The notes: generated by a model not told the origin, from the sequence alone. A stretch of 64,000 nt of DNA from an uncultured bacterium (GCA_966243015.1 CBIMES010000001.1:214837-278836), one strand, 5' to 3'. Positions 4,603-49,237 are shown, numbered from the stretch's first letter. A program made the numbers and translations.

Positions 4603-5427
4603 ATGAATAATCGTAGGATCGGGTTCACGCTCATCGAGCTTCTCGTCGTCATAGCGATCATCGGTCTTCTTTCGTCGGTTGTCCTCGCGAGCCTTAACTC
4701 TGCCCGAGAGAGGGCTCGCCTCGCGGCGGCCCAGTCTTTTGCATCGCAGACGTATCGCGCCCTCGGGGCCTCTGCTGCGGGAGCCTGGAACTTCGAGGGC
4801 CAGTCCGCCTCAATCGCGACTGACTTGTCGGGAAACAATAACGGCGGCACGATCTCGGGTTCAGTCACCTATGTCAGCGGTCCCGTGTCCTCCTCCGTCG
4901 CGATTGGCCTCTTCTCGGACTCCTACGTGCAAATTGTCGATGATCCCTCGCTCAACATGGGCACGGGCGATTTCACCATCATGGCCTGGGTCCGCACCGC
5001 GGGCTACGTTGCCCACGGATCAGCCTGGAACATCCTTATCGGCAAGGGAGACTGTTGCATTAGCCCTGGGTACGCTATCGGGTACGGCGCCAACAATCTG
5101 CCGGGATTATTCCTCGGGTCAGCCCAGGTCGCCGTCGCGAGCACGGCAATCGGTGATGACAAGTGGCATCATATCGCGGCGGTAAGGAAGGGCACTGAAG
5201 TCAAAATGTACGTTGACGGCAGGGAAAGCGGCTCGGGCACAGTGAGCGGCTCCACGAGCGCTAGCCCGTCGTCAGCTTTGTTTATAGGGAAGGATTCAAA
5301 CGGCGTGGTGAGGGCGATACGGGGATATGTCGATGATGTCGTCCTCGTTCCTTCGGCGCTCACGGCGTCAGAGGTGTTTCTCAGGTATGCAGAGAGCTCT
5401 CCGGCCCCTGTCGTCGCTACTGAGTAG
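4603..5427 (+). CDS. type IV pilin-like protein (prepilin N-terminal methylation/cleavage motif) with a C-terminal LamG/ConA-like jelly-roll domain
   Basis: N-terminus MNNRRIGFTLIELLVVIAIIGLLSSVVLASLN is a class III signal peptide (G/FTLIE). The C-terminal region (GDFTIMAWVRT…KWHHIAAV…MYVDG…FIGKD…RGYVDDVVLVPSALTASEV) is a Laminin_G_3-type fold. TATAAT lies 6 nt upstream of the ATG. Confidence 0.8.
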   Translation: MNNRRIGFTLIELLVVIAIIGLLSSVVLASLNSARERARLAAAQSFASQTYRALGASAAGAWNFEGQSASIATDLSGNNNGGTISGSVTYVSGPVSSSVAIGLFSDSYVQIVDDPSLNMGTGDFTIMAWVRTAGYVAHGSAWNILIGKGDCCISPGYAIGYGANNLPGLFLGSAQVAVASTAIGDDKWHHIAAVRKGTEVKMYVDGRESGSGTVSGSTSASPSSALFIGKDSNGVVRAIRGYVDDVVLVPSALTASEVFLRYAESSPAPVVATE

Positions 5428-6565
5428 TGTTCGTTGCCGGTCCTTGTCTTTGAAGGCGCGACCTCAGCGCTTCCACGAATTTCTCGGTGTCAAAGTTTCC
5501 CGCTCGTTCCCTGCATGCGCGGTCGTATCTGCCGGGGTCTCGTGCGAGGTTGTCGGAGACTTCTCTCATGGCTGCCGCGAGCCGTCGCCCGTCGACGTCC
5601 TTTACGAGCAAACCTGTCTCTCCGTTGACAACGGTTTCCCTGTAACCTCCCTTGTCAGACGCGACGACTGGCTTTCCGGCGGCCATGGCCTCGACCGTCG
5701 ACATGCCGAAGTCCTCGTCGAGGGCCGTTGCGAGAAGGCCTTTTGCGCCCGCGTAGAGCGCGACAAGCTCTTCCTGGGGGACCCAGCTCCTGATGGACAC
5801 GTTGGATGGGCAGATTCTGTCGAGCTCCTCTTTGTAGCCCTCGAACTGTATCGCCCCTCGCTCGTAGCTGCCCACTATGACGAGTCTTTCCTCGGGCATG
5901 AGCGACAGCGCCTCCATTTGTATCTCGATGCGCTTGGGCCGCATGATTCTGTTTACCGACAGCCAGTATCCAGGCTTCTCGTTTGTCGCGGCTGTCGGCA
6001 GCTCAAACCTTTTCGTGTCCGTGGGCGGATAGGCTATCTCCGCCTCCTTTCGATAGTATCTTCTGATGCGATCCTGGGTGTTCGCGGAATTGCACATCCA
6101 GGCCCCGACGCTTTTCGCGTACCGCAGGGTGATTCTCCTGTTCATGTGTGCCCACAGGTCAAAAAGAGGCCTCTTCCATCGGGTCTTGACGATCTCGTCT
6201 CTGACGTAATCCTTGAATTCCCAGAGCTCGTTCAGGGGCGAGTGGGCGTACCACAGATTTGGCGAGTGGTTGACGGCGGCCGACATGGCCCAGTCGCCGC
6301 ATATGACGTACCTGTCATATGATTTTCCGAGGCTGAGCCTTCTGAAGCGCCAGAGCGTCGCCTGATGTCTGAAAGGGGCCTTCTTTGGCACCCGCCCGAT
6401 GGATTTGACGCGAGGGAGAACGTCCCCGAATCCCATGTTCCTAATATGCCCTTCGCTCACGTTCGTCGTGTAGACGTCCGCGCCCAGGGCTCGGGCAAGG
6501 GTGAGCGTGACGATTTCCGCCCCGCCGATGTTGTCCATGAAGCTGTGGAATATGGCGACTCTCAT
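5417..6565 (-). CDS. glycosyltransferase family 4 (GT-B, RfaG-like)
   Basis: 382 aa. The C-terminal EX7E-like region (…DEDFGMSTVEAMAAGKPVVASDKGGYRETV…) is typical of GT4. Confidence 0.8.
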   Translation of the reverse strand: MRVAIFHSFMDNIGGAEIVTLTLARALGADVYTTNVSEGHIRNMGFGDVLPRVKSIGRVPKKAPFRHQATLWRFRRLSLGKSYDRYVICGDWAMSAAVNHSPNLWYAHSPLNELWEFKDYVRDEIVKTRWKRPLFDLWAHMNRRITLRYAKSVGAWMCNSANTQDRIRRYYRKEAEIAYPPTDTKRFELPTAATNEKPGYWLSVNRIMRPKRIEIQMEALSLMPEERLVIVGSYERGAIQFEGYKEELDRICPSNVSIRSWVPQEELVALYAGAKGLLATALDEDFGMSTVEAMAAGKPVVASDKGGYRETVVNGETGLLVKDVDGRRLAAAMREVSDNLARDPGRYDRACRERAGNFDTEKFVEALRSRLQRQGPATNTTQ

Positions 6566-7722
6566 AGCTCCTGTATGCCAAGGGTGCTTATCATGAAGGA
6601 CGAGAAAATCGTCTGAACCCCGAGGGCGATGAGGGTGAGGGCGACGATCGAGCTCTTTGCGGCATCGAGCGATCCAAACCCGGACTGGGCCCAGGCGATA
6701 AAGACAGAGGCGTACACGGCCGTGCCGACCAGCGCGATCAGCATTCCGGCGACGCAGGCTCTCTCGAGGGTTACCACCCTGAGCGCCCTTTCGAAGAGGG
6801 GGCTTCTTTCACCGAGGTGCGCGAAAGCGTACGCCTTTGAGAAGGCGGAGAACAAGACGAGCTGATATCCGATGATTACCGTGGCGGCGAGGGGGAACAT
6901 GGGGTGGACGTAGAAATGCATGCCAAATATAGTTGGGTCTGAGAGCAAGAACACGATAAGGCCCAGCGCGCCCGTGAGCGACAGGGCAATGCCCGGCGCG
7001 AGAAAGAGGGCGACGGGGGAGCAGAGGAGTATGAAGCGGAGGTGCCTCCAGCCGTCGGAAAAGGACCTGAGCTTTGACGCACCGGTTCTCGCCCTGTATC
7101 TCACGGGTATTTCGGCCATGCGAAGTCGCTGTTTTGCGGATTTGACGATCATCTCAGAGGCAAACTCCATGCCGCTCGTCCTGAGTCCGATTGCTTCAAA
7201 CCCACGTCGCGTTATGGCGCGGGCGCCGCAGTGCATGTCGCCGAGAGGCGCCTTGAAGAGCACCCTTACCAGCGTCGAGAGAAGGGGGTTGCCCAAGAAT
7301 CTGTGGAGAGGCGGCATGGCGCCCGGATCTATGCCTCCAGAGAATCTGTTGCCGACCACCAGGTCGTTTCCCTTGCTGATCTCGTCTACGAAGCGGGGAA
7401 TGTCGGAAAAGTCGTAGGTCCCGTCCATGTCTGCCATATAGATAATCTCGCCGCGCGCCTCCCTGAATCCTCGCAGGCAGGCGCTTCCGTAGCCTCGTCT
7501 TTCTTCGCGGACGAGCCTGAGGCCGGGAAAGGCTCTTGCCTCCTCTTCTATAATGGGGGCGCTTCGGTCAGTAGAGCCGTTGTCGACGACTATCACCTCG
7601 GCGCTGATGCTCTCGCGCAGGATGGTCTCACGGAGTGCTTTCAGGCATTTTTGCGCGGAGTCCTCCTCATTCAGGCATGGTATGACCACGGAGACGAGCG
7701 GGCTGTTCGAAGTGGGGCTCAT
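6562..7722 (-). CDS. glycosyltransferase family 2 with C-terminal TM helices; polyprenol-phosphate sugar transferase (ArnC/DPM1-like)
   Basis: N-terminal SVVIPCLNEE…VVDNGSTD…DMDGTY motifs (DXD) are followed by 4 predicted TM helices. Overlaps the GT4 gene by 4 nt (ATGA). Confidence 0.85.
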   Translation of the reverse strand: MSPTSNSPLVSVVIPCLNEEDSAQKCLKALRETILRESISAEVIVVDNGSTDRSAPIIEEEARAFPGLRLVREERRGYGSACLRGFREARGEIIYMADMDGTYDFSDIPRFVDEISKGNDLVVGNRFSGGIDPGAMPPLHRFLGNPLLSTLVRVLFKAPLGDMHCGARAITRRGFEAIGLRTSGMEFASEMIVKSAKQRLRMAEIPVRYRARTGASKLRSFSDGWRHLRFILLCSPVALFLAPGIALSLTGALGLIVFLLSDPTIFGMHFYVHPMFPLAATVIIGYQLVLFSAFSKAYAFAHLGERSPLFERALRVVTLERACVAGMLIALVGTAVYASVFIAWAQSGFGSLDAAKSSIVALTLIALGVQTIFSSFMISTLGIQEL

Positions 7723-7736
7723 GTTATGATGGCTAA

Positions 7737-9488
7737 ATGTTTCAGGTGATTATGGGCCTCGTATGCACGGCTGCCCCCTTTGCTCTGGTCTCTCTTTTTG
7801 GGGATAAGAGGAGAGGAATTCTTTGGGTCGCCCTGGGTATCCTCTCGCTTCACGCCCTCGTTGGCATCGGGTCTCAGGCCCTCGGTGTCTTTTCCTATCC
7901 CGTTGTCGCGACAGTCCATGTCTTGGCGTCTCTCGGGGCCTTGGCTTACGCGCTCTCGCGCGGTGCGGTGCGGGGGTGGTCCTTTTCCCGAGAGGGCCTC
8001 ATCGTACTTTGGGCTGTGGCAATTATAGTATTCCAGCTCGCGTTGGTCCATTACGACTATTCGGGGCCGGTGGCGTCGATAAAGGGTGAATCAATAGACA
8101 GGGGGGTGAATTATCCGTACCCACTGTTCTCTGATGAGTGGGTCGCCTCGTCGCTCATCTCTCACACCGTGAAGACCGGTTCGCTCCCCCTGGCGAATTC
8201 GCTCTGGGAGGGTGAGCGGTCGGTCAATCTCCTTGTGCCGTTCCATTCGCTTGCCTCCGAGGTCTCCCTTTTCTTCGGCCTCGATCCCGTTGTCGGCGTG
8301 CCTGTGCTTGCCATCGTGTTCGGTGCGCTGGTGTCTGTCTCGGCCATGTTCTTGGCGTGGTCCATGGGAGGAGGGGTGCTTGCTTCGGTGCTCGCGGGCG
8401 TCTTCGTTCCCTTAATCACGAATGGGTCAAACCTGCCGGGAATCTGGTTTCTCATGCCTTTCGTCGTCTCGCTCTCACCGTTCCTCTGGTTTCTATCTGC
8501 GCTTTCCGTGGGACGTCGTGGCCTCGCCGTCGGGTGCGGGTCCGTTTCGGTGCTCCTGTATCCTCCCATGCTGGTTTTTGTCCTTCCCGCGGGCCTTGCC
8601 TCTGCCTGGGGTTCGGGAAATGCCTTTTTGCGACGCACGTTTTTAATATGTGGTGCCGCCGTGCTCGCGGTCGCTTCGGCGGCAGGGCTCTCGGTGCTCC
8701 TGGGGCCAGGTGATTTTTGGGCGCGCGTATCAAGCGCTGTATTCCACGGCAATCTTGATGGGGGTGTCGCCTCTTACTCCTTCTGGAAGGTGCTGCCTGG
8801 GGCGCTCGCGCCCTTTTTCGTTCTCGGCTTCTTCAGGGCGTGGGGCAGGGAGTCTCGTCACGTTGTCGCCGCCGTCATCGTCGGTGCCTTTGCGTGGGTC
8901 GCGTACTCTGTGTTGCCGGTCGTGTTTCTTATAGAGCACCCTCGCGTCGTCGTCATAACGGCTGTCCTACTTTCGGTTTTCGCCGCGTTTGGTTTCTCCG
9001 CCGTCTTGGACGGTCTTCTCGGCACTCGACTCAGGCTTGTTTCTTGTGTGGTCGCGCTGGCTCTCGCTTCCTCAGTCTCCTTTTTGTACCCGTGGGGAGA
9101 CTCGTGGCGAGACCTCACGTTGTCGGTTCGCGCGGGCGGCGATGTCGTCACGGTGAGGCCCGCGGCACCGGTAAACCGCTATCTGCACCCTGATGACCTC
9201 AGGTTGTTCGAGGGTGTAACGGGCTCTCGCTTCATAGCGCCGCCCTGGAAGGGTCTCGTCATTGGCGCCGCGACGGGGAATTACCCTCTTGAGTCAAAGG
9301 CCTCCACTATTACGAACAGATACGTTCTCTATGCTGACTTCATGTCTTCTGGTTGTGATGCCAAGGCATCGATTGCCCAAGAGTGGAAGGTGTCTGTGGT
9401 CTATTCTGAGCCGTTTGATTGTAACGGCTTCCGTTCAACGGCCACGAGTTCTGAGGGTCTGGTGTTCTATCGCGTTCGTGGCTTCTAG
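7737..9488 (+). CDS. polytopic integral membrane protein, probable GT-C-type glycosyltransferase (ArnT/PMT/YfhO-like) partner of the adjacent GT2
   Basis: 583 aa with ~12 hydrophobic helices in the N-terminal 450 aa and a soluble C-terminal domain. The GT2 plus GT-C gene pair is the classic polyprenol-phosphate-sugar glycosylation arrangement. An extended -10 (TGtTATGAT) sits 6 nt upstream of the ATG. Confidence 0.6.
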   Translation: MFQVIMGLVCTAAPFALVSLFGDKRRGILWVALGILSLHALVGIGSQALGVFSYPVVATVHVLASLGALAYALSRGAVRGWSFSREGLIVLWAVAIIVFQLALVHYDYSGPVASIKGESIDRGVNYPYPLFSDEWVASSLISHTVKTGSLPLANSLWEGERSVNLLVPFHSLASEVSLFFGLDPVVGVPVLAIVFGALVSVSAMFLAWSMGGGVLASVLAGVFVPLITNGSNLPGIWFLMPFVVSLSPFLWFLSALSVGRRGLAVGCGSVSVLLYPPMLVFVLPAGLASAWGSGNAFLRRTFLICGAAVLAVASAAGLSVLLGPGDFWARVSSAVFHGNLDGGVASYSFWKVLPGALAPFFVLGFFRAWGRESRHVVAAVIVGAFAWVAYSVLPVVFLIEHPRVVVITAVLLSVFAAFGFSAVLDGLLGTRLRLVSCVVALALASSVSFLYPWGDSWRDLTLSVRAGGDVVTVRPAAPVNRYLHPDDLRLFEGVTGSRFIAPPWKGLVIGAATGNYPLESKASTITNRYVLYADFMSSGCDAKASIAQEWKVSVVYSEPFDCNGFRSTATSSEGLVFYRVRGF

Positions 9489-11336: not shown

Positions 11337-11876
11337 CTAGAAGGCCCGGCTGTAGCTGATGGACTTCATGCCTGACCACTTGAACTCGATTTTCTCGTGC
11401 CTGCTGACCTTCCACACGAGCCGTGACTGGACGTAGACGGTCACGTCCTGGCTCAGCACGGTGGTGTCGACGCCGCCCTTGAGGTCTCGGTAGAGCTCGT
11501 AGGTGCTGACGAACCTGTCTGCCACGTTGTAGAGCATGGACGTCTCGTCCCTGATCTTCGCTGTGAACTTGAACTGTCCGATGACCTCCATGGCGCTCGA
11601 CGAGTATGAGTGCCGGGGCGCGAACTTTTTTTCGAGATCGCGCAGACGGCGCTCGGTCTCCTTCGAGACCGTCGAGTAGTCGGTGAAGACAAGGACGACA
11701 GACGCCTCGGGCCGTCTTTCGTCGGTTGGGGTGGTTTGTTCTGCCTGTTTCGGTGTTTCTGATTTCTCCTCGGTCGTCGGCTCGTAGGGATACATCTCGA
11801 TGATGCGGTCCTTGGACGAGCCCGATGCCTCACTGGCTGCCGCAAGCGCTATGAGCGCGAACAACAGTGCTTTCAT
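11337..11876 (-). CDS. secreted hypothetical protein (signal peptide MKALLFALIALAAASEA)
   Basis: Internal Met of ORF-track ORF 11337..12047 chosen because it begins a canonical signal peptide. No domain recognised. Confidence 0.5.
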   Translation of the reverse strand: MKALLFALIALAAASEASGSSKDRIIEMYPYEPTTEEKSETPKQAEQTTPTDERRPEASVVLVFTDYSTVSKETERRLRDLEKKFAPRHSYSSSAMEVIGQFKFTAKIRDETSMLYNVADRFVSTYELYRDLKGGVDTTVLSQDVTVYVQSRLVWKVSRHEKIEFKWSGMKSISYSRAF

Positions 11877-12491: not shown

Positions 12492-12998
12492 ATGAGGACC
12501 AAGGGCTTTACTTTGATCGAGCTCCTCGTCGTGATATCTATTATCGCGCTCCTTTCGAGCGTTGTGCTGGCAAGCCTGAATACGGCGCGCGCCAAGGCGC
12601 GTGATTCCGAGAGGATCGCCGAGCTCAAGGCGGTTCAGACTGCCCTTGAGCTGTACCGAACTGACAACGGCTCCTATCCGTCCACGGGCGGCACCGGCAA
12701 CTGGCGGGGTATGTGCTCGAACTTCAACCCGGGCGGAACATATACGACCTCAGGCGCGTCCGGATACGTTCCTGGCCTCGCGCCGACCTACGTATCGGTT
12801 TTGCCACGCGATCCCAAGGAGGTGGCCGATTCGTGCTATGTCTACACCTCGAACGGCGTGGACTACATGATGCTTGCCTGGAGGACTGTCGAGGCGAACA
12901 TCGGTAACATTCCCGTCGCCTTGCAGAGGCAGAATACTTCATTTGGCTCGACTGACAGGACCTACGCGGTCTATTCGAGCGGCGCGGTCAGCTGGTAA
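12492..12998 (+). CDS. type IV pilin-like protein (short, 168 aa)
   Basis: N-terminus MRTKGFTLIELLVVISIIALLSSVVLASLN is a prepilin methylation motif. Paralogue of the gene at 17951..18436. Confidence 0.8.
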   Translation: MRTKGFTLIELLVVISIIALLSSVVLASLNTARAKARDSERIAELKAVQTALELYRTDNGSYPSTGGTGNWRGMCSNFNPGGTYTTSGASGYVPGLAPTYVSVLPRDPKEVADSCYVYTSNGVDYMMLAWRTVEANIGNIPVALQRQNTSFGSTDRTYAVYSSGAVSW

Positions 12999-13750: not shown

Positions 13751-14617
13751 ATGCACATCACATCTATGGCCCTTTCAACCAAAAAAGTTCAGGAGCTCGA
13801 GCTTCAGGCGAACCAGATTCGCCAGTCCATCATCGAGATGCTGCTCGAGGCGGGCTCGGGTCACACCGCGGGACCGCTCGGCATGGCGGACATCTTCACG
13901 ACGCTCTATTTTTACACCCTCAATCATCGTCCCAAGGATCCGTCATGGGAAGGAAGGGACCGACTCGTTCTCTCGAATGGCCACATCTGCCCGGTGCTCT
14001 ACGCGACCATGGCTCACGCGGGATATTTTCCCGTTGAAGAGCTCAAGACCCTTCGCAAGTTCGGCTCGCGCCTTCAGGGGCATCCGCATCGCGAGTATCT
14101 GCCCATGCTCGAGACCTCGTCGGGTCCACTCGGCTCAGGCCTCTCTCAGGCCGTGGGTATGGCACTCGCCGATCGCATCGACAGCGGCAAGGCGTCGTCC
14201 CGCCGCATCTACTGCCTGACCTCCGATGGAGAGCATGACGAGGGTAATACATGGGAGGCGATTATGCTCGCGGGCAAGGAACGCCTCGGCAATCTCGTCT
14301 GCGTCATCGATCGCAACAATATTCAGATCGACGGTAACACGGAGGACATCATGCCTCTCGAGCCGTTCGTGAACAAGTACATCACCTTCGGTTGGCACGT
14401 CATCGAGATCGACGGCCACAACATGGAGGAGATTGCCGACGCCTTCGAGAAGGCTAAGGCCATTTTCGACAAGCCCGTCTGCATCATGGCCCACACAATT
14501 CCCGGCAAAGGCGTCGCTGAGTTTGAGAGGAAGTACGAGTGGCACGGCAAGCCGCCGAACAAGGAGGAGGCGGCGATGGCTTTGGCTGAACTTAAGGCGG
14601 CCGCGAAGAATATATAA
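13751..14617 (+). CDS. transketolase, N-terminal (thiamine-diphosphate-binding) subunit of a split transketolase
   Basis: Contains …AGSGHTAGPLGMADI… and GDG-type TPP-binding (…CLTSDGEHDEGNTWEA…). About 288 aa, which is subunit size. The ATG at 13766 (MALSTKK) is an alternative start, because the first ATG directly abuts an extended -10 (TGGTAGAAT). Confidence 0.9.
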   Translation: MHITSMALSTKKVQELELQANQIRQSIIEMLLEAGSGHTAGPLGMADIFTTLYFYTLNHRPKDPSWEGRDRLVLSNGHICPVLYATMAHAGYFPVEELKTLRKFGSRLQGHPHREYLPMLETSSGPLGSGLSQAVGMALADRIDSGKASSRRIYCLTSDGEHDEGNTWEAIMLAGKERLGNLVCVIDRNNIQIDGNTEDIMPLEPFVNKYITFGWHVIEIDGHNMEEIADAFEKAKAIFDKPVCIMAHTIPGKGVAEFERKYEWHGKPPNKEEAAMALAELKAAAKNI

Positions 14618-14788: not shown

Positions 14789-15367
14789 ATGCAACCGCCA
14801 CGATCCCGAACGTACTGGCTTCACCGCATCATCCTGATCCTCGTGTCGGGGCTCTCTGTCGTTATTCTCTTTTCCGCTCTCGGCAAGTACGGCGGGGTAG
14901 ATGCGGGAGGCGTCCTGGGCTCTATCGCCCGGATGAAATACACGCCTCATGTGGCGCTAGCGGTCATGCTTATTGCCGCTTTGGTGACGGCCTACGACAT
15001 GGTCGCGACGCGGGCCCGCATGAGGAGGAGGGAAGCTGAGATTGATGCCCGCCTCGCGCCCTTCCGTCCCGAGGGTCAGCAGGGCGCCCCTGTGCCGTCT
15101 CAACCAGTCGCAGGCGGGTGGTCGTGGAAGAAAATCCTCGTCGAGGCCGTAGGATGGTACGGCGCGGCGGGCCTTCTTTCAGCCTATCTTCTCTCGAGCT
15201 TCGATATCCTCCACCCGAATCAGCCCCTTTACCAGATTCTCAATGTGACCGCGGCTCTCGGTATCGTTATCGTGTCCCTGAGCAAGAAAAACTATCAGCC
15301 GGCGGTTCTCGACATCATCTGGGCGACGATCGGAACCATCTCGCTTGTCAGGATGTTCGTGTCCTAG
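14789..15367 (+). CDS. hypothetical membrane protein (192 aa, 4-5 TM helices) inserted between the two transketolase genes
   Basis: ORF-track ORF with clearly hydrophobic segments at both ends. Confidence 0.55.
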   Translation: MQPPRSRTYWLHRIILILVSGLSVVILFSALGKYGGVDAGGVLGSIARMKYTPHVALAVMLIAALVTAYDMVATRARMRRREAEIDARLAPFRPEGQQGAPVPSQPVAGGWSWKKILVEAVGWYGAAGLLSAYLLSSFDILHPNQPLYQILNVTAALGIVIVSLSKKNYQPAVLDIIWATIGTISLVRMFVS

Positions 15368-15389
15368 TTGGTTGCGACGGTGTGGTAAA

Positions 15390-16403
15390 ATGAAAACCAT
15401 GATTTCTCCTTCCCAAAAACTCAATCCAAAGGTCTTCGAAAAGGACGTCGAGCAGGTGCCGATCCGCAAAGGCTTTGGCGAGGGTCTCCTCGCAGCGGGA
15501 GAGGCGGACAAGAACGTGGTCGGCCTCTGCGCGGACCTTACGGACTCGACGCAGATGAATCTCTTCCGCGACAAGTTCCCCGAGAGGTTTGTCCAGGTGG
15601 GCGTTGCCGAGCAGAACTTGGCCACTGTCGCATCGGGTATGGCGGCCATGGGTAAGGTGCCGTTTATAACCTCGTACGCCACGTTCTCCCCGGGGCGAAA
15701 CTGGGAGCAGATTCGTACCACCATCGCGTATAATGACGTGCCTGTTAAGGTTGTCGGTTCGCATGCGGGCGTATCTGTCGGTCCTGACGGAGGCACCCAT
15801 CAGGCCATCGAGGACATCGCGCTCATGCGCGCCATACCGAACATGACCGTTGTCTCGCCGTGTGACTCGATCGAGGCGAAGAAGGCGACCGTCGCCCTCG
15901 CGAAGACGGGCAAGCCCGCATACATTCGCCTTATTCGCGAGAAAACGCCTGTCGTGACTACCGTCGACACTCCGTTCGAGCTCGGCAGGGCCCAGGTCTT
16001 CTTCGAGCCTATAGCGGGACTGCCTGACGTGGCGATTATCGCCACGGGTGCCCTCGTCCACAAAGCTCTCGTTGCCGCACGCGACCTCGAAAAGGAGAAG
16101 ATCGGTGTCCGCGTCGTCAACCTCGCGACCATCAAGCCGCTTGACGAAGACACGCTCGTTCGGGCTGCCCGTGACGCTGGCGCTCTCGTTACCGTCGAGG
16201 AGCATCAGGTCGCGGGAGGCATGGGATCAGCCATCGCCGAGCTTCTGGCCGCAAAGTCTCCCGTGCCGATTGAGTTCGTCGGCGTCCAAGACAGGTTCGG
16301 GCAGTCGGGAACTCCGAGCGAGCTCGTCGAGCACTATGGCATGGGCGTCTCCCACATTGTTGCCGCAGCGAAGAGGGTGATTGCGAGAAAGTCGAAGAAA
16401 TAG
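15390..16403 (+). CDS. transketolase, C-terminal (pyrimidine-binding plus C-terminal domain) subunit
   Basis: Matches transketolase Pyr and C-terminal domains (…FGEGLLAAGEADKNVVGLCADLTDST…VGSHAGVSVGPDGGTHQAIEDIA…). An alternative leaderless start lies at 15399 (MISPSQ), 7 nt after TGGTAAAAT. A terminator follows at ~16418-16455. Confidence 0.9.
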   Translation: MKTMISPSQKLNPKVFEKDVEQVPIRKGFGEGLLAAGEADKNVVGLCADLTDSTQMNLFRDKFPERFVQVGVAEQNLATVASGMAAMGKVPFITSYATFSPGRNWEQIRTTIAYNDVPVKVVGSHAGVSVGPDGGTHQAIEDIALMRAIPNMTVVSPCDSIEAKKATVALAKTGKPAYIRLIREKTPVVTTVDTPFELGRAQVFFEPIAGLPDVAIIATGALVHKALVAARDLEKEKIGVRVVNLATIKPLDEDTLVRAARDAGALVTVEEHQVAGGMGSAIAELLAAKSPVPIEFVGVQDRFGQSGTPSELVEHYGMGVSHIVAAAKRVIARKSKK

Positions 16404-17087: not shown

Positions 17088-17133
17088 GGCCACTAGTATA
17101 GCAAAACCAACCCTTACTTCGTATAATGGGAAC

Positions 17134-17940
17134 ATGCATCAGACTCGTCCCTCAAGGGGCTTCAACCTCATCGAGCTCCTCGTTGTCATCTCCATCATCG
17201 CGCTCCTCTCGAGCGTCGTGCTCGCGAGTTTGGGCACTGCACGAGAGCGTGCGAGAATCGCCGCTGCCCGCCAGTTTGGCTCTATGGTTGATCGCGTTGC
17301 GGGCGATCAGGCTGTTGGTATCTGGGATTTCGACGAATGTTCGGGTGCGACGGCCAATGATAGGTCTGGCAATGGCTACACAGGAACCCTGACGGGTTCG
17401 CCGTCATGGTCCTCCGACACACCTTCAGGTTCTGGCTGCTCCATACTCTTCAGCGGGGCAAATTGGGTCGCGCTCGCTAACAGTGCCTCGCTCGATGTCG
17501 GTCAAACCTTTACTATCTCCGCCTGGATTAAGCCTGACGCTCTCACGGCGGGCTGGCAGGATGTGCTTGCGGGTGGTATCAATGACGTGGGCTTTGGCTA
17601 CAATCCCACAAATGGGGGTGTCATGCGACTCACCAAGGTAAGCATCATTGATGCGACTCCGTCGCCGACAGTGGTTACGACGGGCGCTTGGCATCACGTC
17701 GCAGCAGTCTTCTCCTCGGGGTCTCTCACTTACTATCTTGACGGAAAGGAGGCGGGGAAATCGACGTTCGCCCAGACCTTTACATCTGGTCTCAAGCGCA
17801 TCGGTTCACGAGTATCGCTCTCAGGTTCGTTCGCCGGCCGCATTGATCAAGTCCGCGTCTTCACCAAGGACCTGACCGCGGCAGAGGTTAATCTTATATT
17901 CGCCTCGGAGAAAGCCTCGATTCATGTCGCCTCTAATTAA
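17134..17940 (+). CDS. type IV pilin-like protein with a C-terminal LamG/ConA-like domain
   Basis: N-terminus MHQTRPSRGFNLIELLVVISIIALLSSVVLASLG. The C-terminal region (…FTISAWIKPDA…AWHHVAAVFSSGSLTYYLDGKEAG…RIDQVRVFTKDLTAAEV) is LamG-like. TATAAT lies 6 nt upstream of the ATG. Confidence 0.8.
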   Translation: MHQTRPSRGFNLIELLVVISIIALLSSVVLASLGTARERARIAAARQFGSMVDRVAGDQAVGIWDFDECSGATANDRSGNGYTGTLTGSPSWSSDTPSGSGCSILFSGANWVALANSASLDVGQTFTISAWIKPDALTAGWQDVLAGGINDVGFGYNPTNGGVMRLTKVSIIDATPSPTVVTTGAWHHVAAVFSSGSLTYYLDGKEAGKSTFAQTFTSGLKRIGSRVSLSGSFAGRIDQVRVFTKDLTAAEVNLIFASEKASIHVASN

Positions 17941-17950: not shown

Positions 17951-18436
17951 ATGAAAACACGAAATCGCGGCTTCACCCTCATCGAGCTCCTTGTCGTCAT
18001 CTCCATCATCGCGCTCCTCTCGAGTGTCGTTCTCGCGAGCTTAAACGCCGCAAGGTCGAAGGCCAGGGACTCCGAGCGTCTCGCTGACGCCCGACAGCTG
18101 CGAAATGCCGTTGAGCTCTATCGCAACGACAGTGGTAGTTACCCAAGCACCTCGGGTAACTGGAGGGGGGTCTGCTCGAGCTTCGGTAGCCATGGCACGA
18201 CGGGATCAGGTGGCTATGTGCCGAATCTCGCCCCAACCTACATACCTGTTCTACCAACGGACCCAAAGCCGCTGGGGACGAACAATTGCTATCTCTACAG
18301 GTCGGACGGTATCGACTATATGATTCTCGTTTACGGGACAGTAGAGAACACGCCTATCAATCCCGCGCTTCTCCGGCCAAACTATCCAACGGAGCGTAAC
18401 TACGCCTTCTACAGTGAAGGGGCGAGGATGTGGTAG
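17951..18436 (+). CDS. type IV pilin-like protein (short, 162 aa)
   Basis: N-terminus MKTRNRGFTLIELLVVISIIALLSSVVLASLN. Paralogue of the gene at 12492..12998 with about 60% identity over the body. A terminator follows at ~18458-18500. Confidence 0.8.
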   Translation: MKTRNRGFTLIELLVVISIIALLSSVVLASLNAARSKARDSERLADARQLRNAVELYRNDSGSYPSTSGNWRGVCSSFGSHGTTGSGGYVPNLAPTYIPVLPTDPKPLGTNNCYLYRSDGIDYMILVYGTVENTPINPALLRPNYPTERNYAFYSEGARMW

Positions 18437-20014: not shown

Positions 20015-20134
20015 GGTGTGCCCATTGTATGTCATCAAGCGGACGTCAAGGAAGGGTAAAGGGAGGATAAAACTGGGGAGGGCATGTGGATAATTAATTT
20101 GATGCGGAAAAGCCGTGTTAATATCTACTATGAT

Positions 20135-23100
20135 ATGAAGCAAATAAAACGCGCGCTGGCGGGTCTTCTTGTTCTCGCAATGACCATCCCGCAGATTACT
20201 TTCTCACAGTCATCGGGAGAGACCCTTTACCTAAATGAGTTCGACGGCGCGGCGCCCGCCATATCGTATGCCTATGGTGAGGACTCGCCGTGGTACGACA
20301 CTACCTTCGGCTCCATCAGCGCCCAGGGCGGAATCCTGTCACTCTCGGGCATCACCGGCACGGATACGAGCGTCTTTTTCACCATTCCCGGGAGTGGCGA
20401 TGTCTTTCCGGGTGAAGTCAGCCCACTCGGGCTCATTGTTAGCGCACGGGTCAGGATCGTTTCCGATCTGCCTGACGTTGGCCTTACCCTTTTCACCGAC
20501 AATTGGCAGGGGGATAGCGCGTTTACCTCAGTCACGAATGAATGGGTGACCCTTGAGTTTAATGAGACGATTGATTTTACCGATTTTGGCTTTGAGCTGA
20601 GTTCTTACGACGGATCCTTCTCGCCGTCAGACACGATCGAGATCGACTGGGTCAAGGTTTCCAGCCCGGCCCTCGTACCAGGCGTCTATTTCAACGCGGC
20701 GTCTGACAATGACTGGTCAAACGTATCGAACTGGTGGGCAGACGCAGAGTTTACCGTCCCCGCAAACGTCCTTCCGGGTTCTGAGAGTGACGTCGTCATC
20801 TCTGGTCTCGTCTCGAGCGACAGCTCGGGCGCGGCAACCGTCAACTCGGCCGTATTCACGGACGGCTCGGAGCTGGTTGACATAACCCTTACCGCCGCCA
20901 CGACGACTTTCGAGGGGAGTGCCATCAACCGCGGTACCGTGGAAGGCAACGCCATATTTACTTCTGCCGAAGCGGGTACGCTCACTCTTGGGGACGGCAT
21001 GTACTGGGGGACTGTCAACGGATCCGTCTTTGGGTCGGACGACGCTCCTATAACCAGCTTTATCTTTAATGCGTCGAGCGTAAACGTCGGTACCGTTCCC
21101 GGCAATGCGACCTTCAACGCGGGCGCCCAGAATGACGGAACGGTGCAGGGCGACGCCCAGGTAAACTACCCCTTCGTCCTACCTCTTGGAGGAACTGTCG
21201 AGGGAAATGTCACGTACTCAGGCTACACAACCTATTATTACAACAACGCCGCCTCTGACGGAGACTGGGCAAATCTCGCGAATTGGTGGCTTGATTCGGG
21301 GCACACAACAAATCCGAGCGATTTGCCGGGAAATGAGAGCGACGTCTATATTCAGGCGAGCGTGTCTTCAAGCGGCGTTGGTCCCGTGGAAGTCGCCACC
21401 GCCACCTTCTCCTCGGGAGTAACCTGGGGCAGTGGCCTCTCGCTGACGGTTTCCGATGGGGCTGTGTTTAACGCCGCGCTTAATAGTGGATCGGTTACGG
21501 GATCGACCACGTTCAGCGGCAGCACGGCGAGGAACAATCTCGCGGGTTCCGTTACTGGAAACGTCACTTTCGACGATGGGTCTCGAAACTATGGATCGAT
21601 CACGGGCCCCGTTGTCTTTAACGGCGGTTCACGTCACGAGTTCGGCGCTCTTATCACGGGCAACGCCGTGTTCAACGACAGTTTGACTCAGTCGGGCTCA
21701 ACGATCGCGGGAGAGGCTGTCTTCAATAACAGCAATAACAGCGCAACCGTCGGTTCATCCACTTTCAACGGATCGAGCGCGAACCTTGGAGGAACGGTGT
21801 CGGGCGCCGTGTTCAATGATTCGAGCTACAACCAGCGCACCATCTCGGGCAACGCGGTGTTCAACGATTCGAGTTATAACAGCGGCGCGAGCATATATGT
21901 CGTCGTGACGGGAAACGCCACGTTCAACGGCAACTCGTATAACTCGGGAACGGTGCAGGGTAACGCTGAGTTCAATGATAGCTCTTCAAACGTTCTGCCC
22001 GCGAATCCTTCTCTGGGTCTCGTCGCTGGCGACGCGGTATTTAGGGACTCAAGCAGCAACACGGGTACGATACAGGGAAACGCTGACGTGTACTTCCCGG
22101 TCACCATGCCTCTCGGGGGAAGCGTCGGTGGCGCTTTGACCTATTACGACTACCCAGAAGGCGTGTATTTCAATAACGCGGCTGCTGACGGGGACTGGGC
22201 GAACATAGCCAACTGGTGGGCTGACGCCGGCTTCACCCAGCAGGCGGGATCCGTGCCAGGTGCGAACGCGGACGTCTTCGTGTCTGCTCCTGTTACGCAA
22301 AACACCGGCGACCCTGTCTCGGTCAACTCAATTCAGTTTTCCTCGGGGGCGTATAACGAGATCGAGGTTACGGTTGCCGACGGCGTGGTCTTTACCGGCG
22401 GTTCCTACAATAACGGCACGGTGAACGGGGCGGCCATTTTCGAGGATGGAAGCTACAATAGCAACACTGAGGGCGCCACGGTCAACGGTAGCGCGATTTT
22501 CCAGGGATCAGCCTATAACCAGGGCGTCATTACGGGTGATGCTATTTATGCATCTTCCACGGGTGGCACGTTGACCGTGCTGTCAGGCGGCGCCTGGAGC
22601 GGTTCTGTCGGCGGCACCGTGAGGGGCGGCGACGGCAACCCGATAACTGACTTCGTGTTCGAGGACGGGTCGTACAACAGCAGCGGCGTGACGGTTCCTG
22701 GCAACGCCACCTTCAGTGGATCGGCCTATAACTCTGGAACGGTGTCGGGCAATGCTACTTTCAACGGCTCGGCCTATAACGCCGGCGCCGTTCTTGGTGA
22801 CGCCACCTACTCATCCGCGTCAGGCGGCACGCTGACAATCTCTTCTGGGCTCTCCTGGACGGGCTCGGTTGGAGGGACGATCAGGGGCGGCGATAGCGAC
22901 CCTATAACCGACTTCGTCTTCGAGGACGGCTCGTATAACAGCTATGGTGTCACGGTTCCCGGTAACGCCACGTTCAACGGCTCGGCATACAACTCGGGAA
23001 CAACGACGGGTGACGCTGTCTTTAACGACAGTTCGTACAACTCTGGAACGGTGCAGGGTAACGCCATCTTCAATGGCTCTTCGTACAACTCAAATTTCTT

Positions 23101-44969: not shown

Positions 44970-44997
44970 ATTATAGCATGACCATAAAAATTGTCAA
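44970..44997 (-). promoter_or_regulatory. full consensus promoter TTGACA-16 nt-TGcTATAAT on the minus strand
   Basis: Minus-strand reading gives ctgTTGACAatttttatggtcaTGcTATAATactcac, directly after the stop of the gene at 45002..45955. Coordinates approximate. Confidence 0.5.
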
Positions 44998-45001
44998 CAG
45001 T

Positions 45002-45955: not shown

Positions 45956-46523
45956 GAGTTACGGGTGTCGCTTCTGGCTCTGTCTTGTCCTCGCCTTCTG
46001 CCGCCGCGAACGCCTCGAGCTCGGCGCGGGTCTTGTCGTAGTCGGGCAAGTCCTGGACCTTTGAGACGCCGAGATGCGCGAGGAGGTCGATGGTCGGGGC
46101 GTAGAGGAAGCCACGCTTGTCGCCCTCCCTTTCGGCGATGCGGCTGACGAGCCCGCGGACAAGGAGGTTTCGGACGATGAAGGACGAGTTAACGCCGCGG
46201 ATGTAGTCGATTTCAGAGCGTTTGACGGGCCCTTTGTAGAGGATGATGGAAAGGGTCTCGAGTCCGGCCTTGCCAAGGTCTCGCATGAGCTCCTCCTTAG
46301 TGAGGGCAGTGATGAGGTCGCTCGCCTCGGGCGCGGTGCGAAGCTCGAGCTCGCCCTCGTGTCGCATGAGGCGCAAGCCGCGGGTCAGTAAATTTGCCTC
46401 GAGGGCCTTGGATACCTCGGCGAGCTGCTCGACGGTGCAGCCGAGAGCGGCCACGATCTTCTTCTCGGCCATTGGCTCGCCTTTCCAGAACAGAAGCGCT
46501 TCGAGTTTTGAGTCCAGGTTCAT
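45942..46523 (-). CDS. scpB: segregation and condensation protein B
   Basis: …LEALLFWKGEPMAEKKIVAALG… and winged-helix repeats typical of ScpB. Sits in an operon with scpA. Confidence 0.85.
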   Translation of the reverse strand: MNLDSKLEALLFWKGEPMAEKKIVAALGCTVEQLAEVSKALEANLLTRGLRLMRHEGELELRTAPEASDLITALTKEELMRDLGKAGLETLSIILYKGPVKRSEIDYIRGVNSSFIVRNLLVRGLVSRIAEREGDKRGFLYAPTIDLLAHLGVSKVQDLPDYDKTRAELEAFAAAEGEDKTEPEATPVTHDQA

Positions 46524-46543
46524 GAGTGGTTTCTAGTATACGG

Positions 46544-47263
46544 TTAGTAGCGCGGAACGCCAAGGTTTTCCGTCTCCATCTGTATGTCGTCAAAGTGTTT
46601 CTCCTGACTGACGCTTATGACGCCCTGCTTCACGAGCTCGAGCATGGCGAGAAAGGAGACGATGACGTGCACGCGCTCGGCTTTGCCGGAGCCCGAGAAC
46701 TCCTTGAATCCCATCTTGAGGCTCGAGGTGATGCGCTCGGTGAGGTTGCCGATCATCTCCTCGAGGGACATGACCTTATCGACGACGACCTTCGGCAGGA
46801 ACTCCTTCTTCGGGAGGTGCGTGAGGACGCGGCCGATGGCGGCAAAGATGTTCGGCACGGTCATGTCGGCGTCGGGCGAGAACGTCGGAGGGAGGATGCG
46901 CTCGCTTCTGCCGAGCATGACCTGACTGCCGAACAGGGGCTTGAGCTTCGCGCCGAGCTCTCGGAATTTCTCATAGAGCTTGAGGCGTCGCTCGAGGTCG
47001 GCAACGCTCGCCTGCTCTTCCGTGGTCAGGGTGAGGGTCGGCAGGAGGGACTTTGACTTGATGAGAAGGAGGGTCGATGCCACGAGGACGAAGTGCGCGC
47101 TGTCCGCCACGGGAAACTCGCTCAGGCTACGGACGTACTCGATGTAGTCATCGGCCACTTGGGCGAGGGACACGTCGCTCACGAAAAGCTTCCTCTTCTC
47201 GATGAGGTCGAGGAGGAGCTCGAGGGGGCCTTCGAAATGGGTCTGCTTTACGGTAAAAGCCAT
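46544..47263 (-). CDS. scpA: segregation and condensation protein A
   Basis: MAFTVKQTHFEGPLELLLDLIEKRKLFVSDVSLAQVADDYIEYV… aligns with the ScpA N-terminus. The internal Met is chosen. An extended -10 (TGcTAAAAT) and a GGAAGGA Shine-Dalgarno lie upstream on the minus strand. Confidence 0.85.
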   Translation of the reverse strand: MAFTVKQTHFEGPLELLLDLIEKRKLFVSDVSLAQVADDYIEYVRSLSEFPVADSAHFVLVASTLLLIKSKSLLPTLTLTTEEQASVADLERRLKLYEKFRELGAKLKPLFGSQVMLGRSERILPPTFSPDADMTVPNIFAAIGRVLTHLPKKEFLPKVVVDKVMSLEEMIGNLTERITSSLKMGFKEFSGSGKAERVHVIVSFLAMLELVKQGVISVSQEKHFDDIQMETENLGVPRY

Positions 47264-47336
47264 GGCGGGTCGCTGTCCTTCCATTTTAGCACATCTGTGG
47301 TATTGTTCGGTGAGAGAAGTCTTTTGAGGTGAGATC

Positions 47337-47407
47337 GGTCGCGTTTGCCATCGGAAAGACCGGCGCCTTACCCGCGTTGGCCGGGGGTTCAATTCCCCTC
47401 GCGATCA
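47337..47407 (+). other. tRNA-like element: canonical T-arm (GGGGG-TTCAATT-CCCCT), 7-bp acceptor stem (GGTCGCG/CGCGATC), U8, A14 and GG in a D-loop-like segment, but no canonical D or anticodon stem
   Basis: Read by eye. The GGTTCAATTCC T-loop consensus is unique in the window. The central 37 nt cannot be folded into standard D and anticodon arms (position 37 would be C), so this may be a degenerate tRNA, a pseudogene or a tRNA-like structure. Confidence 0.25.
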
Positions 47408-47655
47408 TCACCAGCATACACGTGCCGGCGCCCGGGCCCTGCCCAGGTGTTAACCTCAGATAGAAAGTAGTAAGTCCATGTCCTTTGTAGTCATCATACA
47501 TAGTGACGGAACCGTGGAGCGAGTCGAGAGCCTCAAGGCGCTCGTCGCCGTCGCCGCGGACATCCGCACGTCACGCTAACGCGTGAAAAACACACCTCAA
47601 AGGACTTCTTGTCGAGCGCCCCTCCCCTCCGGGATCGGGCGCTTTTTCTTTGCGC

Positions 47656-48462
47656 CTACTGGCCGGGAACGGCTGCGTACACGCGAGCATTCGAGAGGTT
47701 GCCGTAGAGGGAATAGGTCCCACCGTACCCCATGCCGCCGAGCCCCATCTCGCCGGGCATTGTGGCGAGGGGCGCCGCGATGCTTCCGCTGCCGACCTGG
47801 GTTCCGTTTGCGTAAAGGGTTACCGATCCCCCGTTGCGAACTGCGGCGATATGAGTCCATTTGTTCAAAGGAGCCACGCCCGCCTGCGAAATCACCGAGG
47901 GCCAGGCGCTGCCCGTGAATACGCCAAACGACACCCCTCCGTTCGAGGTGAGTCCGAGGTTGTAGTTCATGTCAGAGTATCTTCCCCCACGAACCACGGC
48001 TGTACCCGCACCGCCGTATGCGGTAGGACGCACCCACGCGGACACCGTCACGTCACCTGTTATGCCGAGTTGTGGATTGGCGGTGCCAACGGGAGCGATT
48101 GCAAGACTCGTGTCGCCGCCAGAAAGAAGAAGGGAGCATCTGTTGTCGTAGGGGCCCTGGTTAGAGGACCATGATGCGGCGGCCTGAAGAGTTGCTGTGA
48201 CGCTCCTTCCCGATTTATCTGCCGCGGCCACGCCAGAGCATTCGTCAAAATCCCACCACCCCACAGCCCTGTCCCCGAGGGTTCTGTCGAGCATGGATGC
48301 GAACTGCTTGCCCGCGGCGAGACGGGCCCTGTCACGGGCCGCGTTCACGCTCGCCAAGACCACGCTCGAGAGGAGGCCGATGATCGATATGACCACGAGG
48401 AGCTCGATGAGAGTGAAGCCGTGTGAATCTCTTATGTTATCCAGTTTGATTAGAGTGGACAT
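47656..48462 (-). CDS. type IV pilin-like protein with a LamG/ConA-like domain
   Basis: N-terminus …DSHGFTLIELLVVISIIGLLSSVVLASVN. The C-terminal region (…VTVSAWVRPTAYGG…KWTHIAAVRNGGSVTLYANGTQVGSG…) is LamG-like. Confidence 0.8.
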   Translation of the reverse strand: MSTLIKLDNIRDSHGFTLIELLVVISIIGLLSSVVLASVNAARDRARLAAGKQFASMLDRTLGDRAVGWWDFDECSGVAAADKSGRSVTATLQAAASWSSNQGPYDNRCSLLLSGGDTSLAIAPVGTANPQLGITGDVTVSAWVRPTAYGGAGTAVVRGGRYSDMNYNLGLTSNGGVSFGVFTGSAWPSVISQAGVAPLNKWTHIAAVRNGGSVTLYANGTQVGSGSIAAPLATMPGEMGLGGMGYGGTYSLYGNLSNARVYAAVPGQ

Positions 48463-48472
48463 GCTTTGGGTT

Positions 48473-49237
48473 TTATTCGAGAGTTGGGTAATACACTCTC
48501 AACGAGTCAATTTGACCGACCCAGTACTCGCTTGGCAACGTCTGCCACGAGCGGGCAAAAGCCGTTTGGACGCCACCCATGTCGATAATGCTGGCGCTCG
48601 GCAGCGAGACCTCCTTGTCGAGCTTACCGTCGATGTAGAACTTGTAGCCGACGCCTCCCTCGAGCAGAAACGCGATGTGAGTCCACTTGTCGAGGGGAAT
48701 GGTCGCGTTCGACTGCGGCCAGTGGTTGCCGCCTGCGTTTATCATGAGCTGAAGCCTGCGCGATGGGTTGACCCCGAAGTAGAGAAAGCCCGGAAAGCCG
48801 TTCGCGATCATGCTATAGCCGCCGCTCACATACTGGGTCGGCTTGACCCATGTCATGAGCAGGATTTTACCGTTTGCCCCGCCGACCAGATCAATGCTCG
48901 ACCTCAGGTCTGGAACTGATACATAGCTATTCCCGTCGAAAGAGAGGGCTCCGCCGCTCGGGCCTGCCGTCCACTGGGGCGTTCCCGAGAAGGATCCGTG
49001 TCTTCCAGCGCCGGAAATATCCTGGGGAGCGCTACCGGATCCGTCGTTGAGCTCCCATATTCCGAGGGCGTTGTTGGCGTAGGCGCTGTGCATGCTTGCC
49101 GCAAAACGAATTCCCGAGGATATGCGCGCCTTCTCCCGAGCAGCGTTCACGCTCGACAGCACGACGCTCGAGAGGAGGCCGATGATCGATATGACCACGA
49201 GGAGCTCGATGAGGGTGAATCCGCGCGACGCTTTCAT
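48473..49237 (-). CDS. type IV pilin-like protein with a LamG/ConA-like domain (tandem with the gene at 47656..48462)
   Basis: N-terminus MKASRGFTLIELLVVISIIGLLSSVVLSSVN. The C-terminal region (…KILLMTWVKPTQYVSGG…KWTHIAFLLEGGVGYKFYIDGKLD…) is LamG-like. An extended -10 (TGGTATAAT) sits 8 nt upstream of the ATG. Confidence 0.8.
   Translation of the reverse strand: MKASRGFTLIELLVVISIIGLLSSVVLSSVNAAREKARISSGIRFAASMHSAYANNALGIWELNDGSGSAPQDISGAGRHGSFSGTPQWTAGPSGGALSFDGNSYVSVPDLRSSIDLVGGANGKILLMTWVKPTQYVSGGYSMIANGFPGFLYFGVNPSRRLQLMINAGGNHWPQSNATIPLDKWTHIAFLLEGGVGYKFYIDGKLDKEVSLPSASIIDMGGVQTAFARSWQTLPSEYWVGQIDSLRVYYPTLE

Follow-up and report, generated by a model that had tools for sequence, protein, structure and literature searches.

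Dispersed type IV pilin genes with LamG-type domains in a Patescibacteria genome, and a conserved 5' segment as a probable site of recombination between neighbouring genes

INTRODUCTION

In Neisseria, a single expressed pilin gene, pilE, is accompanied by promoterless, 5'-truncated silent copies with interspersed conserved blocks, and switching occurs at high frequency. The genes described here have a comparable layout, in that the start of the pilin coding region (5') is conserved, the 3' regions vary and copies have recombined; they lie in a stretch of 64,000 nucleotides from an uncultured bacterium (GCA_966243015.1, CBIMES010000001.1:214837-278836; this whole stretch is called the window). 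It contains six type IV pilin genes, four of which join the pilin N-terminus to a LamG-like domain. Unlike those of Neisseria, the copies in the window are all complete genes, their bodies have nothing but the fold in common, and consensus contigs show no variation in the population. Our preferred reading, to which we give a probability of about 0.7, is that the window is part of the genome of an ultrasmall bacterium (Patescibacteria) of Paceibacteria/'Taylorbacteria' type, in which the six genes belong to an ordinary dispersed pilin repertoire.

Pilins that combine IPR012902 with PF13385 (Laminin_G_3) are among the most frequent modular pilin architectures, with many examples from the Candidate Phyla Radiation, and the role proposed for modular pilins is the display of adhesion at the pilus tip (PMC8179133); the LamG genes of the window have this same architecture, which is thus common and already published. 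The Streptococcus sanguinis lectin pilin PilC (52.8 kDa; pilin, Ig-like and lectin parts) binds glycans, is incorporated in pili and has been modelled at the tip (PMC9934059). By comparison, the model obtained here has neither a separate pilin head nor an Ig-like linker, at least six copies occur, singly or in pairs among housekeeping genes, and binding is predicted from the fold. Closer in phylogeny is the episymbiont Nanosynbacter lyticus TM7x (Saccharibacteria), in which the major pilins are small and highly expressed, while the minor pilins PilX1 and PilX2 are larger, have lectin-like C-terminal domains implicated in host binding, and are required for that binding (PMC11623550). Both are Patescibacteria with many pilin genes in several loci. 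The four pilin loci of TM7x hold machinery genes, whereas none were found in about 95 kb here; the class (Paceibacteria here) and the lectin folds may differ, and the window pilins are known from their genes alone. The core genome of Parcubacteria includes a type IV pilus operon (PMC4508563).

[quoted passage not shown]

RESULTS AND DISCUSSION

Six prepilin-type genes among housekeeping genes

A six-frame motif search for class III (prepilin) signal peptides detected exactly six prepilin-type genes in the window, the same six that had been proposed in an earlier examination of the DNA by itself (the sequence-only reading). They are as follows:

4603-5427, plus strand: p4603, LamG pilin, 274 aa, leader MNNRRIG, alpha1 helix and LamG jelly-roll (N_methyl 32 bits, Laminin_G_3 85 bits)
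12492-12998, plus strand: p12492, small pilin, 168 aa, leader MRTKG, Cys at 75 and 115 (N_methyl 30.5 bits)
17134-17940, plus strand: p17134, LamG pilin, 268 aa, leader MHQTRPSRG, mature start FNLIELL (Laminin_G_3 100.5 bits, N_methyl 22.5 bits)
17951-18436, plus strand: p17951, small conserved pilin, 161 aa, leader MKTRNRG, Cys at 75 and 113 (N_methyl 35 bits)
47656-48462, minus strand: p47656, LamG pilin ('A-type' body), 268 aa, long leader MSTLIKLDNIRDSHG (Pfam)
48473-49237, minus strand: p48473, LamG pilin ('B-type' body), 254 aa, leader MKASRG, no Cys (Laminin_G_3 66 bits, N_methyl 33 bits)

In all of them, a leader of 5 to 15 amino acids ending in Gly is followed by Phe at +1, Glu at +5 and a hydrophobic stretch, the consensus being G↓F(T/N)LIELLVVI(S/A)II(G/A)LLSSVVL(A/S)S, with the arrow after the last leader residue. 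The six proteins passed the Pfam N_methyl model (22.5 to 35.4 bits; cut-off, 21.2), and the four long ones, as anticipated, also passed Laminin_G_3 (65.7 to 100.5 bits; cut-off, 27.6; E 1e-18 to 1e-28). With both domains on one polypeptide, these four are modular pilins in the sense of Raynaud et al. (2021).

The genes are embedded in housekeeping surroundings. The sequence-only reading had named recR, rpiB/rpe and ScpA as neighbours, and L21/GT4, dnaB and AsnRS can be added to them. Thus, p4603 has rplU (L21) on one side and a GT4 glycosyltransferase gene on the other, and p12492 lies exactly between rpiB and rpe. The tandem arrangement that had been described comprises two pairs: p17134 followed by p17951 between recR and dnaB, and p48473 followed by p47656 between AsnRS and ScpA. 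The window as a whole (57% G+C) has a gene set of reduced-genome style, including L21, RmuC, glycosyltransferases, GAPDH, rpiB, rpe, a split transketolase, recR, dnaB, several aminoacyl-tRNA synthetases, MurG, FtsW, ScpA/ScpB, M23 peptidases and two giant surface proteins. An exact copy of the p47656 protein was found on 7 metagenome contigs, the longest of 493,814 bp. Another five N_methyl genes or more, of which two are of LamG type, lie in a 20-kb stretch of the same genome 135 kb away, with RNase III, NusB, RNase HII, DnaE, tRNA-synt_2b (a class II aminoacyl-tRNA synthetase), GyrB and PheRS as neighbours. The genome total is at least 11 pilin-type genes, single or paired, and dispersed.

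The two kinds of pilin differ in how widely they are conserved. Homologues of p17951 numbered 6,609 and were 55 to 68% identical across Parcubacteria, whereas the LamG pilins were just 30 to 45% identical to theirs. Homologues of p47656 with both N_methyl and Laminin_G_3 numbered at least 2,100, the named ones belonging to Candidatus Paceibacterota or Taylorbacteria. The two small pilins are 60% identical to each other outside the N-terminus, and profile matches related the N-terminus of p17951 to the solved pilins geopilin, GspG, PilA and PilE. This pattern of conservation fits a conserved structural (major) subunit with diversifying accessory subunits, and makes p17951 a candidate for the major, filament-forming subunit.

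Putative promoter elements were observed close to several start codons. TATAAT boxes lie 6 nt upstream of the ATG of p4603 (4591-4596) and of p17134 (17122-17127), and a TGnTATAAT, with the TG one base ahead of TATAAT, lies 8 nt upstream of that of p48473 (49246-49251). A consensus promoter scan supported the box of p4603 only, those of p17134 and p48473 being read by eye. The spacing of 6 to 8 nt suggests leaderless or nearly leaderless transcripts for these three genes. The motif TATAATGGGAACATG is kept in a relative (REL87; see below). For its part, p47656 starts 10 nt past the stop codon of p48473, with which it is probably co-transcribed, and its leader, MSTLIKLDNIRDSHG, is unusually long. 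The position at which relatives have ATG-AAA reads ATA-AGA in this gene; the original start may have mutated, so that an upstream in-frame ATG would now be used.

In the region upstream of p48473 (49238-49491), about 190 nt separate the terminator of AsnRS (AAAAGACCGCCCCATGGCGGTCTTT) from the promoter of p48473 in the window genome that are not present in REL87; the gene caller placed a 45-aa ORF there on the opposite strand.

Predicted fold of the LamG pilins

A profile built from an alignment of 72 homologues was run against solved structures. It matched LamG-like carbohydrate-binding or lectin-like domains with E values from 8e-23 to 1e-9, including the S-layer protein 4qvs (8e-23), domain 4 of arabinanase (5ho0/5hon), neurexin LNS domains, pentraxins and the neurotoxin HcN domain, while its first 45 positions matched the alpha1 helices of geopilin, PilA, GspG and PilE. 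An AlphaFold2 model of p47656 (pLDDT 92.6, pTM 0.86) consisted of a helix at residues 18 to 65 (pLDDT 95 to 98) running straight into a beta-sandwich of 15 strands at residues 66 to 262. Foldseek returned 468 matches of this model in the PDB at E ≤ 1e-3; the top ones were lectin-like jelly-rolls, namely, the TeNT/BoNT HcN domain and the arabinan-binding domain 4 of AbnA (E 1e-8 to 1e-10; query TM score, 0.53 to 0.62). Because the profile matches, the predicted structure and its Foldseek matches agree, the LamG assignment made by the sequence-only reading holds, and in the model the jelly-roll stands in place of the usual pilin head.

A helix that leads directly into a jelly-roll of 200 aa, with no classical pilin beta-sheet head in the model, would also suit proteins that use the class III signal peptide for export and anchoring alone, and that serve as cell-surface lectins or substrate binders rather than as filament subunits. 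The dispersal of the genes among housekeeping genes, away from any pil operon, would be in agreement with such a role, and the archaeal sugar-binding proteins of the 'bindosome' provide a parallel. However, the LamG pilins keep Glu5 and the full alpha1N with the same strictness as the small pilins, suggesting an equal packing constraint, and PilC shows that a lectin pilin can be part of a pilus (PMC9934059). We therefore consider a role in export and anchoring alone improbable, and keep to the reading of the LamG proteins as pilus subunits.

Assembly genes and the type of filament

No T2SSE, T2SSF, PilM or peptidase A24 domain was found by Pfam among the roughly 40 ORFs of the window. No assembly genes were present either in a further 31 kb or so of the same genome for which precomputed Pfam annotation was used (the 20.8-kb paralogue locus and the flanks of the window, 1.8 kb on the left and 8.4 kb on the right), and a scan of the fetched loci for the T2SSE Walker motif, looking for pilB, pilC, pilD and pilM of the same genome, gave nothing. 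In one relative, a gene for a T2SSE ATPase lies 4 kb from a B-type LamG pilin gene, next to holA/polA. The statement of the sequence-only reading that machinery is missing is thus correct for the approximately 95 kb examined, but its absence is uninformative and unremarkable, because Parcubacteria have the pilus operon among their core genes (PMC4508563).

A different filament could also be considered. The genes might encode pseudopilins of a competence system (Com-type DNA uptake) or of a secretion pseudopilus, the LamG subunits capturing DNA or substrates. Sources label homologues of the small pilins 'type II secretion system protein G', and these pilins match the Pfam T2SSG model weakly, although both scores fall under the cut-off of 21 (20.7 bits for p12492 and 19.7 bits for p17951). 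A classical type II secretion system is moreover unlikely because Patescibacteria are not known to have an outer membrane. ComEC, ComF and DprA do occur in the Parcubacteria core genome alongside the pilus operon (PMC4508563), but the only Patescibacteria studied use lectin-like minor pilins in host binding (PMC11623550). A pseudopilin function accordingly receives a low probability from us, and a type IV pilus with LamG subunits remains the preferred reading; a role of the LamG genes as minor pilins or adhesive tip subunits fits by analogy with the described systems.

Similarity of the 5' segment

The conserved 5' segment, here called the cassette, was defined as 84 nt, that is, 28 codons from Gly-1. 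Its six copies are as follows:

4621-4704, plus strand: cassette of p4603; codons shared with the other copies not above the codon-bias prediction
12504-12587, plus strand: cassette of p12492; codons shared with the other copies not above the codon-bias prediction
17158-17241, plus strand: cassette of p17134; a 29-nt run at 17185-17213 is identical to 17996-18024 in p17951; holds the REL87 crossover interval
17969-18052, plus strand: cassette of p17951; contains the 17996-18024 run
48337-48420, minus strand: cassette of p47656; a 50-nt run at 48362-48411 is identical to 49164-49213 in p48473
49139-49222, minus strand: cassette of p48473; contains the 49164-49213 run

Between loci, the cassettes were 71 to 86% identical over the 84 nt, and so were less alike than the near-identity that had been ascribed to them; it is the tandem pairs that stand out, with 87% for 17134/17951 and 90% for 47656/48473 in addition to the 29- and 50-nt runs. 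An antisense peptide, ERRPMI(D/A)MTTRSSM, for which four places had been given, was found at three and is simply the reverse-strand reading of the cassette.

The extent to which these values exceed what the peptide and codon usage would produce was evaluated in two ways. With genome-average codon usage, pairs that include p4603 or p12492 had 10 to 14 identical codons out of about 24 against roughly 9 expected, which was counted as no excess. Pairs among the other four genes had about 15 identical codons, above expectation, and the tandem pairs 18 of 24 and 20 of 25 (p ≤ 1e-4). The possibility that identity would be no higher than codon bias predicts, which the sequence-only reading had considered fatal to its claim, therefore applies to the pairs of p4603 and p12492, while the other pairs exceed the prediction just as other species do: a pilin of REL87 (locus L007) showed an equal codon excess, 18 to 20 of 27, with non-orthologous pilins of the window genome. 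Strong within-genome homogenisation, which the genome-average null had seemed to indicate, was dropped on this account. With cassette-derived codon usage as the null, just one pair was clearly significant (L4_186/L4_165, 23 of 26). Mean cassette identities within and between genomes were as follows:

Within the window genome, non-adjacent pairs: 0.79
Window genome versus REL87: 0.81
Window genome versus a bin labelled Saccharibacteria: 0.80
Window genome versus genome B80: 0.75
Window genome versus Taylorbacteria (TAY): 0.74

A contig scan with an exact 54-nt degenerate cassette pattern detected 19 sites in 16 stretches of other Paceibacteria-type genomes. Given the excess seen with other species and the result with the cassette-derived null, the similarity of the cassettes is mainly the product of a clade-wide conserved peptide and a shared codon bias.

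An effect of adjacency was nevertheless observed. The fraction of identical codons was 0.75 in adjacent pairs versus 0.60 (over all pairs in one account and over non-adjacent pairs in the other; permutation p = 0.004), and tandem neighbours are just 23 to 33% identical in the rest of the protein despite their 29- and 50-nt identical runs.

A per-genome comparison of N-termini covering loci L013-L028 showed that all paralogues of a genome have one fixed variant in common: ISIISLLSS in TAY, often with Ala at -1, IAIIGILSS in B80 and I(S/A)II(A/G)LLSS in the window genome.

Chimeric genes and turnover of pilin slots in relatives

The window genome (WIN) was compared with three relatives, which ScpA identities arrange in two groups, WIN with REL87 and REL80 with REL74 (0.92 and 0.89 within groups; 0.82 to 0.85 between them). 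In the slot between recR and dnaB, WIN has p17134 (LamG) and then p17951 (small), and REL80 (L032) likewise has a LamG gene followed by a small one, whereas REL87 (L030) contains a single pilin gene of 163 aa. The upstream region of this gene is identical to that of p17134 at 54 of 60 nt, against 30 of 60 for p17951, and its intergenic region, its promoter (TATAAT-GGGAAC-ATG) and its leader (MHQPHSSRG) are all p17134-like. Its body, for its part, is 87 to 89% identical to p17951. The informative sites are p17134-like at codons 8-9 and p17951-like from codon 19 on, so that the switch falls within the 29-nt identical run. Because the outgroup REL80 has both genes, the REL87 gene is best explained from these sequences as a deletion by recombination between the two tandem cassettes. 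The unit lost in this clean case comprises a body, the spacer and the next leader, and matches exactly the unit described for the lpl cluster (PMC2568036). Two differences should be borne in mind: the conserved region is central in lpl and at the extreme 5' end in the pilin genes, and therefore recombination here would swap promoter and leader and not half-proteins; and lpl was compared among strains, whereas the present comparison is between species and includes few genomes.

The slot between AsnRS and ScpA gave a similar picture. WIN has p48473 (B body) and then p47656 (A body), while REL87 and REL80 each have one A-body gene (87% and 80% identical to p47656, respectively), and REL74 has a B-type gene in first position (74% identical) that is not followed by an A gene. 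When the upstream regions of ten WIN pilin genes were ranked, that of p48473 was the best match for the single genes of REL87 and REL80 in a local-alignment rank test (25 and 29; next, 18 to 19), a 60-nt global identity having failed to separate p48473 from p47656. For the REL87 gene, the switch can be placed between codons 3 and 20. The REL80 gene retains the B-like Ser-Ser at codons 23-24, which suggests that its crossover point differs from that of REL87. Overall, the switch points of the chimeras were inside identical runs, with one case just past the run. The simplest history for this slot would be an ancestral B plus A pair followed by independent losses.

Between rpiB and rpe, p12492 is missing from REL87 (L030) and REL80 (L032), in which rpiB and rpe are adjacent, while in DATCXV, a genome further removed, this position is taken by a B-type LamG pilin and a small pilin, and the slot between recR and dnaB is empty. 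B-type genes were also found next to RNase HII and next to holA/polA; altogether, B-type bodies occupy four different slots in different genomes. Pilin content at the rpiB-rpe, recR-dnaB and AsnRS-ScpA slots thus turns over between close relatives, and the junctions indicate that, in the clade, homologous recombination between neighbouring pilin genes has taken place repeatedly at the conserved 5' segment.

Tandem arrays of five or six pilin genes occur in other genomes of the clade (L021, 3030-6900; L024, 228-4900), among them a run of three consecutive paralogues of about 190 aa in B80. The arrays are consistent with expansion by unequal crossing-over at the cassette.

The cassette also appears to disturb assembly and annotation. 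In L033 (GCA_002838085.1, LLBY010000266.1), a scaffold gap of 251 N at about 5700-5960 falls exactly in the cassette of a B-type pilin gene, the sequence ending in …ARLS and restarting after the gap at the same residues (RLSAG…), and the pilin (P0242) was called without its N_methyl part. Repetition of the cassette seems to have led the assembly astray here. In L032 (JGI 3300014205, 8650-9410), P0241 is truncated in the same way, and since genes such as these are called without the N_methyl part, pilin counts based on N_methyl are too low.

Extent and kind of recombination

Some observations weigh against the reading set out so far. The codon for Ser24 is AGY in 11 of 11 pilins of the window genome, in 0 of 12 in B80 and in 2 of 9 in TAY, and mature residues 12, 15 and 16 are fixed differently in each genome; such genome-specific states would imply more within-genome homogenisation or co-evolution than the overall identities show. 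At the AsnRS-ScpA slot the change could have gone in more than one direction, with two deletions, an insertion or a replacement at its origin. With neither machinery nor a prepilin peptidase in the approximately 95 kb, incorporation into a pilus is an assumption drawn from family membership, and glycan binding is predicted from the fold alone, LamG domains being known to bind proteins as well. The adjacency effect and the genome-specific states together point to some concerted evolution, which could stem from gene conversion as well as from co-adaptation of helices packed against each other.

In a search by tblastn with the six C-terminal parts, the window yielded the six complete genes only, and no extra cassette copies were detected in it; 14-mer cassette matches at 11715, 26061 and 37049, considered as silent copies, were chance matches inside unrelated ORFs. 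The further silent cassettes envisaged by the sequence-only reading are thus missing from the window. This bears on the idea of a programmed, high-frequency system like pilE/pilS of Neisseria, in which cassette-driven conversion would swap LamG domains at an expression site, the benefit being an altered host range or an escape from phage or immunity. Recombination of the cassette in evolution is demonstrated, tandem neighbours have identical runs of 29 to 50 nt in common, B-type bodies are found at four slots across genomes, and the Ser24 codon signature is specific to each genome, all of which such a system could produce. However, the window holds no promoterless or 5'-truncated silent copies: every copy has a start codon and a leader, and several have their own -10 box. 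The C-terminal bodies are 23 to 38% identical, with no internal homology blocks to template conversion, and the observed events separate species-level relatives (ScpA, 82 to 92%) and not cells of one population. Seven contigs, assembled independently from other samples, were collinear with the window and 99.96 to 100% identical to it, and none of the 8 single-nucleotide polymorphisms (SNPs) among them was in a pilin gene, although these contigs are consensus assemblies in which rare variants are not visible; recombination variants, which had been suggested as a check, were accordingly not found at this level. A programmed system is for these reasons very improbable. Of the shuffling that the sequence-only reading had imagined, what stands is the capacity of the cassette to recombine, as the chimeras in relatives indicate.

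Proposed model

The gene structures, the domains, the predicted fold, the codon statistics and the chimeric orthologues can be accommodated in the following model, in which filament incorporation, glycan binding and the division into major and minor subunits are what we infer. The small pilins p12492 and p17951, one highly conserved family, would probably build the filament. In the four modular pilins, the class III signal peptide and alpha1 helix would run on into a LamG/ConA-like jelly-roll, and these proteins would be carried on the pilus, most likely at or near its tip, where they may bind glycans of a host or partner cell. The 84-nt segment encodes the prepilin-peptidase site (Gly-Phe), Glu5 and the hydrophobic alpha1N that is packed in the filament core. 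Its peptide, held near constant throughout the clade, together with codon bias gives rise to the 71 to 86% DNA identity between loci, a similarity presumably sufficient for occasional homologous recombination, above all between tandem neighbours. Neighbours would in this way become partly homogenised, and fusion-deletions would arise in which the promoter and leader of the first gene are joined to the body of the second. Recombination between tandem cassettes would thereby make the pilin content of a slot turn over between close relatives.

An extension of this model is unlikely, though it deserves to be stated. The cassette might be a generic homology docking site, through which a unit of body, spacer and next leader is excised from one tandem array and re-inserted at any other pilin slot by RecA-driven reassortment. 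This suggestion derives from the location of the fusion-deletion junctions in the cassette, the presence of the B-type body in four slots, the alternation of A and B bodies behind one conserved AsnRS-ScpA upstream region, and the genome-specific Ser24 codon. If it were true, the host-dependent Paceibacteria would be able to reassort lectin adhesins combinatorially from one fixed expression site to another and, following DNA uptake, from strain to strain.

Other features of the window

Two giant surface proteins are predicted in the window:

20084-25657, plus strand: 1,857 aa, with a C-terminal PG_binding_1 as the sole recognised domain
56668-60396, minus strand: 1,242 aa, again with PG_binding_1 at the C-terminus, together with CE2_N/GDSL-like esterase signals and three fn3 domains

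They may be anchored to the cell wall and have host-interaction or lytic roles. The N- and C-terminal halves of transketolase are separate genes (13751-14617 and 15345-16403) with a 192-aa ORF between them, whose REL87 counterpart matches Pfam CBU_0592; the arrangement is kept in relatives. An ORF of 600 aa at 2115-3917 (minus strand), with no Pfam match, was discarded as spurious, the gene calls of identical contigs at this place being RmuC (2967-4070, plus strand) and YqeY (2474-2926, minus strand).

Implications

The new point of this work is a modest one, namely, the promoter-body chimeras and the gain and loss of lectin-type pilins at fixed slots; the current picture of type IV pili is refined for one uncultivated clade and not changed. 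There is a practical value for annotation, as truncated starts and assembly gaps in the cassette mean that pilin counts in metagenome-assembled genomes are likely too low. Patescibacteria rely on attachment to host cells, and pili are the best candidates for the attachment organelles. LamG pilins that occupy conserved slots and differ between close relatives would thus be concrete candidates for host specificity, and fusion-deletion at the cassette would offer a simple mechanism by which the pilin repertoire turns over.

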